Of a stretch of 64,000 nt of DNA, positions 50,939 through 56,745 are shown piece after piece. Position 1 is the first letter of the stretch; every line of letters begins with the position of its first letter. Location of the stretch: assembly GCA_964016885.1 (NCBI GenBank), contig OZ024755.1, forward strand, positions 43,276,001 to 43,340,000, given 5' to 3'. The notes beneath the pieces are model-generated. The model was given only the letters and a program-made list of their open reading frames with translations, was not told the DNA's origin and made no database searches. A program made the translations under genes and the position numbers. The stretch is from Eledone cirrhosa (taxonomy: Eukaryota).

Positions 50939-51252
50939 AAGAACAAAAGATGGTTAAAAGAGTTCCATGTATTTTATTATGCGCATTTCAAAAACAAAAT
51001 ATCATCATGCAATAATATTTGTGTTTTCATCAGATAAAACAGGAAGACATGATATGAAGGTTTTATCTGATGAAAACACAAATATTATTGCATGATGATA
51101 TTTGTTTTTGAAATGCGCATAATAAAATACATGGAACTCTTTTAACCATCTTTTGTTCTTATATATTATGTATACTCCAGTCCTACAAACTGTAGAGTGC
51201 TTCTTATCCGATATCTGCATTGCTTTATTGTACTACAATAAAACTCACCTAC
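50939..51252 (+). mobile_element. Palindromic hammerhead-bearing element in (TA)n (family B); Penelope-like inverted pLTR candidate
   Basis: Arms 50939-51040 and 51060-51160 differ by a 1-nt indel, 19-nt spacer, then ~90-bp unique tail ending at a TA tract. Confidence 0.75.
51061..51127 (+). ncRNA. Type I minimal hammerhead ribozyme (family B); mirror copy on - strand at 50972-51039
   Basis: Helix I TTTTAT/ATAAAA; CTGATGA (51067-51073); long helix II AAACACAAATAT.../...ATATTTGTTTTT; GAAA (51110-51113); helix III palindrome ATGCGCAT; AUA site with A17 at 51121. Confidence 0.78.
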
Positions 51253-51280
51253 ATATATATATATATATATATATATATAT

Positions 51281-51513
51281 AGTAATAATAATAAAATTGA
51301 AGACTAAAATCCAAAGAGGGCTCGATAAGGAAAATATATATCAAATATATAAGAACCGTAGAGCAAATATTTATTAAAATAACAGATTAAAGTTTAAGCA
51401 AAGAATCGCTGCTTTCACCCTTAACGGGATCTTCTGAAACAGGAGTTTCAGAAGATCCCGTTAAGGGTGAAAGCAGCGATTCTTTGCTTAAACTTTAATC
51501 TGTTATTTTAATA
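51281..51513 (-). mobile_element. Perfect hairpin element in (TA)n (family E/A) with a non-canonical hammerhead-like core
   Basis: 69-bp perfect arms 51372-51440 / 51445-51513 with AGGA loop; arm reads CAGAAGA-TCCC-gttaa-GGGT-GAAA-GCAGC; ~90-bp tail at 51281-51371. Confidence 0.65.
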
Positions 51514-51621
51514 TATATATATATATATATATATATATATATATATATATATATATATATATATATATATATATATATATATATATATATATATATATAT
51601 ATATATATATATATATATATA
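51511..51621. repeat. (TA)n microsatellite, ~110 bp pure
   Basis: Direct reading. Confidence 0.98.
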
Positions 51622-51623
51622 AT

Positions 51624-51965
51624 GGAGGCACATGGCTTAGTGGTTAGAGCATTGTCCTTGCAGTTGAAAGGTTGTGAGTTTAATTCTCAGACCGTGTGAT
51701 GTGTTGTTTCCTTGAGCAAGACACTTCATTTCACATTGCTCCAGTTTACTCAGCTGTAGAAATGAGATAGGGACTGGGGTCCCTATCATTCCACTGCAAA
51801 GTGGTCGTGGAGGTGCCACGGCAACAAAGCACCCAGCACTCACTGTAAATGAGGTTGGTTTTAGGAAGGGCATCCAGCTGTAGAAATCAAGCCACCATCA
51901 GTTCCCGTCCCACCCTTGCAAGCAGGGAAAAGCGGACGTAAAATGAAATGAATGAATGAATGAAT
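51624..51965 (+). mobile_element. Near full-length tRNA-derived SINE with RTE-type 3' tail
   Basis: A-box TGGCTTAGTGG (51633-51643), degenerate B-box GAGTTTAATTC (51676-51686), central TCCTTGAGCAAGACACTT and TAGGAAGGGCATCCAGCTGTAGAAA motifs, 3' 40 nt shared with the LINE end at 54651-54690, (GAAT)n tail. Confidence 0.85.
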
Positions 51966-54024: not shown

Positions 54025-54164
54025 TATATATATATATATATATATATATATATATATATATATATGCACATATATATATATATATATATATATATATATA
54101 TATATATATATATATATATGCACATATATATATATATATATATATATATATATACATATATATA
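54025..54164. repeat. Interrupted (TA)n microsatellite
   Basis: TA runs broken twice by GCAC and once by C. Confidence 0.97.
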
Positions 54165-54617
54165 CAATATATTAACAAATGGAAACTATATTTATAAAAC
54201 CATATTTATTTCATTATACATATTTCAAGGGCCACCAAAGTAAACTATGGTGCGCTTTCATCAGATAAAATATAATATAGGGCAGTTTTATAAATAAATA
54301 TTGACATATCCTTAAAAAATGCAACCATTCTGGTTAGAATCTCCTGGAGATTCCAACCAGAATGGTTGCATTTTTTAAGGATATGTCAATATTTATTTAT
54401 AAAACTGCCCTATATTATATTTTATCTGATGAAAGCGCACCATAGTTTACTTTGGTGGCCCTTGAAATATGTATAATGAAATAAATATGGTTTTATAAAT
54501 ATAGTTTCCATTTGTTAATATATTGTATATTTACTCCAATAATTTGTTGAGTGCTTTATATCAGTTATAAAAATATTTTTCTTGTTGTATCCCAACAAAT
54601 TAAATATAACCTCTACA
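54160..54617 (+). mobile_element. 371-bp near-perfect palindrome with hammerhead plus unique tail, in (TA)n (family C); Penelope-like inverted pLTR candidate
   Basis: Arms 54160-54344 / 54346-54530 centred on T54345 with one mismatch seen; ~85-bp tail to the next TA tract. Confidence 0.78.
54419..54482 (+). ncRNA. Type I minimal hammerhead ribozyme (family C); mirror copy on - strand at 54208-54271
   Basis: Helix I ATTTTAT/ATGAAAT; CTGATGA (54426-54432); helix II AAG..CACCA.../...TGGTG...CTT; GAAA (54464-54467); helix III ATATGTAT (self-complementary with G-U); A17 at 54475. Confidence 0.72.
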
Positions 54618-54643
54618 TATATATATATGTGTGTGTGTGTATA

Positions 54644-56564
54644 ATCATCATCATTTTACGTCATCTTTTCTCTGCTTTCAAGGGTGGGACTGGTCCTATT
54701 CAGCACAGCATCTCTCCATTTATCAGGGTCCTTCATCATTCCCTCTGTGAGCTTCAGCGATCTGAGGTCTGCTCTCACCACCTCCACCCATGTTTTTCGT
54801 GGTCTTCCTCTACTGTGTCTTCCTTCTACTGGGATTTCTTGGCACTTCTTTACCCAGTGGTCATCCTACATGTGCATCACATGTCCATACCAATACAGTC
54901 TTCTCTCCTGCACACTACAACTTATCCCTCTTATACACGGTTTCTCTCTCAAATCATCTATGCTTGGTTATTCATGCACATTGACATTGAACGGAGCATG
55001 CTTGCTTCATTTCTCTCCAGCCGTTGCATATCCTCTGCAGTTGCTGCCCATGTCTCACTACCATGCAGCATCACGCATCTCACACAGGCATATATAACCG
55101 TCCTTTCGTACGCAGGGAGAAACCCTTCATTGTCAACAGAGGAAACAGCTCCTTAAACTTCTTCCATCCCTTCTTTATTCTAGATACTATGGCCTCGGAA
55201 TACCCCTCTCCCATGCTAATCTGATCACCTAGGTATTGGAAGCTATCAACCACCTCTATAGATCCTACCTGCATTTGAAAAATGTGTCTATCAATGCGAC
55301 TTCTACTATCAATTTTCCCTGTACATCTACTACATAGAAAGTTTTCCTTTCCTGTTAGTTTACCTGCTATCCCACTATACCTCTTGTATACACAAGATCT
55401 GCATTGTGTACATTCTATACAGTTTATGCCAACTCCTTTTCTACATATTGCACATGGCCATTTCCCTGATGGAATCAGAGTTTTGTCCTCTTTCCTACTT
55501 ATCAATACTTTAGTCTTTGCTAAGTTCACTCTCAGTCCCCTTGATTCCAACTGCTGTTTCCATAGCCAGAATTTATTCTCTAGCTCCTCTACTGATTCTG
55601 CTATAAGTACCAGATCGTCAGCAGAGAGAAATTCCCATGGACAGCCAGTTTAAAACTCCTCTCTTATGGCTTGGAGAACTATAATGAATAAGAGTGGGCT
55701 GATGCACTCCTACTTGTATCTGGAATTCCTCACTAAACTCTATTCCTATTCTCACTTTACTGACAGCACCCCTGTACATAGCTTGCACTGTCCTTACAAG
55801 CCATTCTTACACCTAGTTTCCTTATGGACCACCAGATGACAGATTGAGGTATTCTATCAAAGGCCTTCTCTACGTCAACAAAAGCTAAATATTGTGGCTT
55901 ATTCTTCACTAAGAACCTCTCTTGTAGTTGTCTTACTAAGAAGAGGGCATCTGTTCTACTTTTCCCAGGCACAAAATCAAACTGCATCATTCTAATTTGA
56001 CCCTTGCTCTAATTAGTTGTGCTAGCACTCTTTCTGTCACTTTCATAACCTCAATTTTATGCCCCTAAAATTGCTCTTCTCCAGAACAACCCCTTTACCT
56101 TTGTAGCAATTTATGAGAATACTGCTGCACCAGTCTTTGGTTATGACTCCGCCATATATAACTTGATTGACTGTATGTGTAACTAGTTTAGTTCCTACTT
56201 CTCCTGATGCCTTCAGCATCTCAGCAACTATTCCTGATGGTCCAACTGCCTTACCACTTTTCATTTCTTTAATTGACCCTATAGCCGTCGTCCTCAATAG
56301 CTGGTCCCTCTGTTGGGTCTGTTGGGGGTAGTTTCTCTCTCTCCCATTAATTCTGAACATTCATCAGTCTCTCATAATGAGATTTCCAGGCTTCCTTTTT
56401 CTGAGCATCAGTTACACTAAGTGCTCAGCATAATTTCGGACACACTTATCTCCAACAACATCCTGATTTACACTGACACACTGCCTTGCAATGTGGAACA
56501 CCTCACACTTCTGATCCTTGTGTCACAAAACATTGGCAAACCTCCTACTCTCAACTTCCCTGAG
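54644..56564 (-). mobile_element. Decayed, 5'-truncated RTE-clade LINE with intact 3' tail, copy 2
   Basis: Minus-strand fragments QDVVGDKCVRN, KKEAWKSHYERL, GKAVGPSGIVAE, NFRGIKL, AFVDVEKAFDR, SADD (YADD mutated), GRPRKTW; ends in GACGTAAAATGATGATGAT. Many stops and frameshifts. Confidence 0.92.
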
Positions 56565-56745
56565 TATATATATATACACATATATATATATATTTTGAGT
56601 ATATGTTGGTTGTTTACCGACACCTCAGTATGCAGATTGGAGCACTCGACGAAGTACGCAGGTTGGTTTGTTTACTCCGGAGTAATGTAAAATAATTAAG
56701 TCAAATATGTAAAATTTGGCTTCGTTTATTATAAATTATAGATAT

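Follow-up and report, generated by a model that had tools for sequence, protein, structure and literature searches.

A bulged hairpin shared by hammerhead-bearing Penelope-like foldback elements of Eledone cirrhosa, and its possible role in placing reverse-transcription starts

The reverse transcriptases (RTs) of Penelope-like elements (PLEs) are the closest transposon relatives of telomerase. In stringent LINEs (long interspersed nuclear elements) and in their short counterparts (SINEs), as in the core of the R2 3′ untranslated region (UTR), a small 3′ RNA structure is recognised by the element's own RT and is kept by non-autonomous partners. How might a PLE enzyme choose its RNA and the point at which copying starts? 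In the parts covered here, the sole in-vitro study bounded only the binding region (PMC11167929). We analysed a 64,000-nucleotide stretch of the Eledone cirrhosa genome (contig OZ024755.1, forward-strand positions 43,276,001 to 43,340,000; below, the window, numbered from its first base), in which five foldback pieces of PLEs with hammerhead ribozymes hold six copies of a short bulged hairpin. This motif may be a landmark that tells the copying enzyme where to start. The stringent LINE and R2 structures are single copies lying 5′ of a terminal start, whereas the proposal here is of two copies, placed 3′ of internal starts.

The covered parts of PMC8557442 and PMC4209133 describe PLEs with minimal hammerheads, pairs of these on opposite strands, truncated copies in inverted orientation, a one-end tail and (TA)n targeting; the window elements, which show these features, therefore belong to a known class. 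Within that class, the Hydra clade has a type I hammerhead near the 3′ end, inserts into (TA)n and leaves inverted 5′-truncated copies with a one-end tail, and the sections covered of the paper describing it do not mention the motif (PMC8557442). PAc, a Poseidon element of Anolis carolinensis (Frangieh et al. 2024, PMC11167929, in part), is also similar, in that its RT starts at two internal sites downstream of the hammerhead, which bound the tail, and needs RNA 3′ of the start; copying extends both strands of an AT-rich target, and the enzyme is a predicted dimer. Animal retrozymes of the non-LTR (long terminal repeat) type (PMC7229834; bioRxiv 10.64898/2026.07.22.740005; both in part) are non-coding, carry type I hammerheads and have a proposed PLE origin, and the parts covered name no RT-recruiting signal. 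Their units of about 300–390 nt compare with 345 nt in element A of the window. Retrozymes are tandem repeats that make circular RNA, whereas the window elements are single or foldback copies, and A has an open reading frame (ORF) stub.

The motif consists of a 4-bp RCYC/GRGY stem, an inner hairpin of free sequence that stacks on it, a 2-nt bulge on the 3′ strand, beginning with U in all six copies, and an unpaired NCT (Table 1). It is present in elements B, C, D, E and A, and every copy shares the sense orientation of the ribozyme. When pairs were tabulated by script (a MAFFT alignment of the six copies left the 5′ stems out of register), the first outer pair was A-U in B, C and D and G-C in E and both copies of A, the first inner pair was C-G or U-A, and the second was A-U, G-C or C-G. 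A sequence-only reading of the window had proposed a conserved cis-acting structure with covariation, and the tabulated pairs support this as the probable nature of the motif. The strings that it quoted in B (51173–51201, +), C (54532–54555, +) and D (56684–56641, −) are present to the letter, as is GCTC…GAGCCCT in E (51364–51317, −) and A (49828–49780, −). Its parse of the inner stem of B was mistaken, the homologous pairing being CAGT/ACTG followed by the TA bulge, and element F, which it took for a looser instance (AACT…AGTTCCT, 50875–50902), fails both our strict and our relaxed descriptors and folds with a bulge on the 5′ side and none on the 3′ side. Nor are the elements unrelated, as it had held: E and A are identical in 151 of 158 aligned columns, and B aligned with C outscores 200 of 200 shuffles. 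The same does not hold for the remaining 13 of the 15 element pairs; the elements are diverged members of one PLE lineage.

Several Hydra ribozymes have ACTC-N-GAGT as stem III. Because none of the six window copies has a GAA in front of it or a catalytic core of its own, the motif is not a hammerhead stem III. Rfam gave no match over the motif at gathering score (for the copy in C, in a whole-window scan only), and the matches listed were mostly microRNA models on palindromes or (TA)n.

Table 1. Positions of the elements, motif copies and other features in the window
Feature	Position	Strand	Description
Element A	49745–50129	−	Inverted short arm of 37 nt (50093–50129) and sense unit of 345 nt (copy 2, ORF stub, hammerhead with core at 49900, copy 1, long end), between (TA)n/A tracts
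Element B	50940–51252	+	Type I minimal hammerheads in a foldback pair (cores +51067, −51033); the + strand has the long arm, the − strand the short one
Element C	54157–54616	+	Foldback, 188-nt arms, 1-nt centre; cores +54426 and −54264; long arm on +
Element D	56594–57078	−	Foldback; hammerhead cores −56795 and +56968; long arm on −
Element E	51282–51511	−	Foldback pair, hammerhead-like, CAGAAGA core at −51436 and +51449; long arm on −
Element F, 3′ part	50824–50918	+	Single hammerhead, U3-A8 core
B motif copy 1	51174–51201	+	ACTC stem, 4-bp inner stem, TA bulge, GAGT, unpaired GCT
C motif copy 1	54533–54555	+	3-bp inner stem, TT bulge
D motif copy 1	56641–56683	−	7-bp inner stem including one G-U pair, TC bulge
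E motif copy 1	51317–51364	−	GCTC/GAGC stem, one inner-stem mismatch, TC bulge, CCT
A motif copy 1	49780–49828	−	Same family as E; TA bulge
A motif copy 2	50071–50089	−	GCTC, minimal inner hairpin, TT bulge, GAGC, ACT
ORF stub in A	49890–50051	−	54 codons, in-frame stop at codon 19
LINE-type RT fragments, broken	52490–54030, 54787–56283, 58583–58972	−, −, +	Two long ones 68% identical

We observed seven matches to a strict descriptor (RCYC stem, at least 2 inner pairs, a 2-nt 3′ bulge and NCT) on the two strands of the non-satellite part of the window (49251–64000, 14,750 bases). Six are the copies in Table 1, all inside elements, and the seventh, at 53583–53562 (−), is a chance match within a LINE ORF. 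Across 200 block-wise dinucleotide shuffles the mean was 0.22 matches and the maximum 2, and none reached seven; because the descriptor was composed after inspection of the window and of published consensi, this enrichment cannot count as a blind test. Three further matches came from a relaxed scan, all in LINE or SINE-like sequence, and F again gave none. Single motifs folded modestly better than shuffles (z from −0.3 to −2.3 in the five tested), D reaching −2.3 on the sense strand versus +0.3 on the other. A scan for the pattern in bacterial and archaeal genomes returned 10 loci, none adjoining (TA)n and two with an upstream core-like 7-mer, which we took as chance.

The motif also recurs outside the window. 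By eye, it stands at the ends of four of the six Hydra-clade consensi in File S7 of Craig et al. 2021 (PMC8557442), from three phyla and with compensatory changes. Hydra-2_Amil (coral) and Hydra-2_Ajap (sea cucumber) each have a strict copy 3′ of the hammerhead. In Hydra-1_Ajap two strict copies stand at the 5′ end, while the 3′ end is short and lacks the motif. Both ends of Hydra-1_Crog (sea louse) have a copy with one mismatch, and in the 5′ copy C-G replaces U-A. Since the pattern RCTC…GAGYNCT was drawn up without these consensi, their agreement is independent support. Six 9-mers searched against the 584,217-character supplement of that paper gave seven matches, of which four are the strict copies and three lie within Naiad or Chlamys ORFs (a text search of this kind may miss matches broken across line ends). 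GAGTGCT matched the supplement ten times, and none of the seven matches inspected by eye had the full geometry, one in a Naiad 3′ region being a loose near-miss. We read the motif as a real and conserved RNA element, belonging to PLEs that are probably of Hydra type and to their non-autonomous derivatives. We found no description of it in the covered parts of PMC11167929, PMC8557442, PMC4209133, bioRxiv 10.64898/2026.07.22.740005, PMC7229834, PMC2377424 and PMC6962438; an earlier mention is not excluded, most subscription journals and Repbase notes lying outside this scope, and the motif is apparently new to description within a known transposon class.

In all five foldbacks, the long arm passes through the motif and the short arm stops ahead of it. 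In B, C, D, E and A, the two arms agree to within 7, 2, 4, 2 and 5 nt of the motif, respectively; counted from the start of the (TA)n or A run, the short end lies up to 14, 7, 6, 10 and 8 nt ahead of it. Cleavage site and motif are 53, 58, 68, 32 and 32 nt apart in the same order, and because the short end keeps close to the motif in spite of this range, it follows the motif and not the ribozyme (short end versus motif position, r = 0.99 over four families, the best of 24 permutations in a small sample). On the 3′ side, 51, 61, 47, 35 and 35 nt separate the motif from (TA)n, in line with the 35–60 nt of the sequence-only reading; measured from the motif start, the distance is 79–90 nt, with a standard deviation of 4.5, against 10.8 for the spacer alone (four families). 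This tail is longer than the 30–40 nt quoted for PLEs generally in the covered parts of PMC8557442. That reading had described a 3′ module that defines element polarity. The motif does lie downstream of the ribozyme in B, C, D, E and A, but it is also found in the 5′ UTR ahead of the ORF start, and it occurs twice per unit, one copy (A, 50089–50071, −) having been overlooked. The ends that line up with the motif lie 2–14 nt 5′ of it, while the 3′ distance in the window varies from 35 to 61 nt. The observation made in the sequence-only reading is confirmed in part, and its interpretation is supported in part.

The overlooked copy lies 3 nt from the 5′ end of the sense copy of A, which runs 345 nt from there to the long end, and 19 nt ahead of an ATG. 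Two complete consensi, Hydra-1_Ajap and Hydra-1_Crog, likewise open 2 and 6 nt ahead of a copy (hand count). In Hydra-1_Ajap a short 3′ end goes with two 5′ copies, and in Hydra-1_Crog a long end goes with one copy per end, which is what permutation at two sites would predict. In B and C the long ends are rich in AC and, by eye, resemble the bases just 5′ of the second copy in Hydra-1_Ajap.

How might two copies produce these ends? In a tandem or circular transcript, the unit would read hammerhead, copy 1, spacer, copy 2, ATG. The RT-endonuclease of the element would bind the bulged stem and the unpaired NCT, and reverse transcription would start a few nucleotides 5′ of each copy. A start ahead of copy 1 would leave a short end, and a start ahead of copy 2 would leave a long end carrying copy 1 and the spacer, which together would be the PLE 'tail'. 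The two internal starts of PAc, its need for RNA 3′ of the start and its predicted dimer speak for such an arrangement. More speculatively, a protein dimer seated on both copies might use each nicked strand of the (TA)n target as a primer, and joining of the two cDNAs might then yield a foldback that has a short arm and a long one. We infer that the RT recognises the motif, and we put the probability that the two copies of an element each set an RT start just 5′ of themselves, and thereby make the tail, at roughly one half. Only tentatively do we extend this to a Hydra-clade RNA recognition element in the full sense, that is, a tandem pair of bulged hairpins that would load an RT-endonuclease dimer and set two internal starts from their 3′ side. 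If true, the hairpin pair would explain not only the tail but also the long and short arms of the foldbacks and what retrozyme-like parasites must keep for their mobilisation. A short covarying motif whose geometry is fixed, and whose two copies line up with the ends, offers mutable nucleotides and sharp predictions. It would help to trace non-coding hammerhead repeats back to the clade of their parents, and it might provide a portable tag by which cargo RNA is loaded on PLE enzymes.

Four other accounts of the motif have to be weighed against these paired starts. In one, the long arm comes from a single RT start, after which the cDNA snaps back and serves as its own template; the motif, as a single-stranded-DNA hairpin or an endonuclease site, would be a stop or resolution signal that halts or cuts the second arm just ahead of itself. 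The centre of C, a perfect 1-nt hairpin between arms that are 99% identical, agrees with such a snap-back, and the Watson-Crick stems of the motif form on the other strand too; moreover, the covered parts of PMC8557442 attribute the tail to endonuclease resolution, and the tail of the Drosophila virilis Penelope is reported to be needed for endonuclease recognition (cited in PMC11167929, in part). The short arm of D, which contains about 74 nt not present in the long arm, instead favours separate templating, with the reservation that a later deletion is possible. Short ends are seen without a foldback in view in F and three Hydra consensi, and D folds better as sense-strand RNA, so that we regard a stop signal as unlikely. 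The LINE-like hairpin favoured by the sequence-only reading, a single 3′ recognition structure bound by the RT with priming 35–60 nt downstream, would suit the position of the motif upstream of the end in all five long arms, as well as the steadiness of the 79–90 nt interval. It would leave unexplained both the second copy, found 5′-terminally in A and in two Hydra consensi, and the short ends that lack a motif, and in three Hydra consensi the interval from motif start to end shortens to about 50–70 nt (hand counts); we think a single hairpin of this sort quite improbable.

The position of copy 2 ahead of an ATG, by 19 nt in A, 26 nt in Hydra-1_Ajap and 40 nt in Hydra-1_Crog (the last two hand counts), would fit a 5′-UTR element that acts in translation, stability or transcription of the ribozyme-cleaved, uncapped RNA, with the ends being set by the neighbouring TA-like tract and not by the motif. 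Such a tract precedes copy 1 in all five window elements, and a 34-bp repeat region of Penelope influences expression (PMC2377424, in part). Both copies are nevertheless intact in A, which has lost nearly all of its ORF; the long ends of B and C are AC-rich and not TA-like, and the 5′ ends of A, Hydra-1_Ajap and Hydra-1_Crog adjoin a copy without any TA-like tract, which makes this account rather improbable. That the motif has no function at all, its similarity being a residue of common descent joined to chance in short hairpins, draws on the fact that B and C are alignable relatives, on the post hoc descriptor, and on the matches, one strict and three more relaxed, that fall in LINE or SINE-like DNA. 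Yet where flanks and inner hairpins are unalignable, in 13 of the 15 pairs, the pairing, the NCT and the length of the bulge are preserved, and by eye they are kept in three other phyla; we hold this to be very improbable indeed.

Other observations weigh against the paired starts themselves or against their link to the Hydra clade. The sample comprises four families and five insertions within one window. The short ends sit in a TA-like tract beside the motif, where (TA)n microhomology blurs them, and this tract itself could set the short end. That the long end falls just before copy 2 is drawn from the unit length of A and from two consensi, the sequence past the long ends lying outside the window and copy 2 having been found once within it. 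The evidence on strand is thin, consisting of one G-U pair in D and one folding asymmetry, and the reverse strand of B folds as well as the sense strand. Unlike the starts proposed here, the PAc start lies within the ORF, inside an AC-rich stem loop, and that study left a motif unmapped within its bounded binding region; by eye, we found no copy in a roughly 95-nt PAc stretch of its Fig. S1 (PMC11167929, in part). Hydra-1_Obim (octopus) has degenerate candidates only, and Hydra-1_Amil, 5′ incomplete and with a short end, shows no motif by eye. By eye, the hammerheads of B, C and D differ from the published Hydra table in stem III, with a palindromic loop region of 6 nt not seen there, and database searches gave no support for the ORF stub in A.

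This stub opens with the ATG downstream of copy 2, and the rest of the RT/endonuclease ORF is missing. Hydra-clade proteins are told apart by RWK and DKT motifs, the lack of CCHH and RT phylogeny; the stub contains no RT that could be placed on a tree. By eye, 10 of its first 29 residues are identical to the N-terminus of Hydra-1_Obim, without gaps and in the same register from the methionine. A protein search returned 16 candidates, none of which scored; a match at E 2.6e-5 (among 1.84 billion representatives) was to an 821-aa repeat protein without a PLE domain and was rejected as spurious, and the stub found nothing in bacterial or archaeal genomes and no Pfam family. As the databases did not confirm it, membership of the Hydra clade is likely but not proven. 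The bulged motif at consensus ends and the N-terminus of the ORF, both judged by eye, speak for membership. The hammerhead of F resembles the Hydra type in its stem III (File S2; by eye); the window copies differ from Hydra elements in having no RT/endonuclease ORF and, in B, C and D, in stem III. Insertion into (TA)n is also found in Naiad and some other PLE clades. At the foldback centres of C and D (54346–54375, + and 56846–56875, +), short peptides recall the A stub and the Hydra N-terminus. Because their DNA similarity to A was matched by 26 and 158 of 500 shuffles, respectively, we did not count them as remnants of the ORF start.

The hosts of the motif are hammerhead-bearing foldback pieces of PLEs in (TA)n. 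Each of A–E has one long and one short arm and a tail at one end only, and all long and short ends adjoin (TA)n, in the short arm of A by way of an A run. A custom ribozyme descriptor predicted nine type I hammerheads at a score of at least 8, all in A–E, with canonical cores in B, C and D and one core change in A and E; Rfam did not score A–E as hammerheads. In the predicted hammerheads of A and E (−49900; −51436 and +51449), an A replaces the conserved U4, helix III is longer and the cleavage triplet is CUU. The hammerhead of F (50824–50873, +) scored 20.1 bits (E 0.12) with Rfam Hammerhead_1, whose gathering score is 34, and the U3-A8 variant has been described for Schistosoma PLEs (PMC4209133, in part). 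F ends about 50 nt past its cleavage site without a motif and is read as a short-end copy. Because no ORF for a PLE RT with GIY-YIG endonuclease occurs in A–F, these elements are non-autonomous or truncated copies; the RT fragments of the window sit in separate LINE-like pieces. Head-to-tail hammerhead repeats, by which retrozymes are recognised, are absent from the window, so that the elements are at most like a retrozyme monomer.

A, F, B and E are packed into 1.9 kb (49716–51621) with mostly (TA)n between them, a clustering that suggests repeated insertion into one expanding microsatellite. The AT-rich segment between A and F (50160–50640) adjoins (TA)n and has degenerate internal palindromes; it was set aside as a motif instance, having no match in the strict or relaxed scan, no hammerhead and no clear ORF. 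An isolated CTGATGA core lies at 49496–49502 (+) without a matching GAAA half.

Of the window as a whole, the first 48.9 kb is a 44-bp satellite of about 1,100 copies, with a head-to-head flip at about 48904 and eight inverted copies beyond it (to 49262), which is either a true inversion or a foldback made in assembly. The other 15 kb consists of AT-rich repeat DNA of animal-like character, in which lie (TA)n tracts and the broken LINE-type RT fragments, the third of which has a small foldback of its own (58583–58685). We take 51622–51990 to be probably a SINE-like repeat, with related pieces at 52107–52198, 59173–59551 and 63609–63668. ARAGORN found no tRNA genes in the window, and a 19-bp tandem repeat beginning at 63751 continues to position 64000 and runs off the window end.

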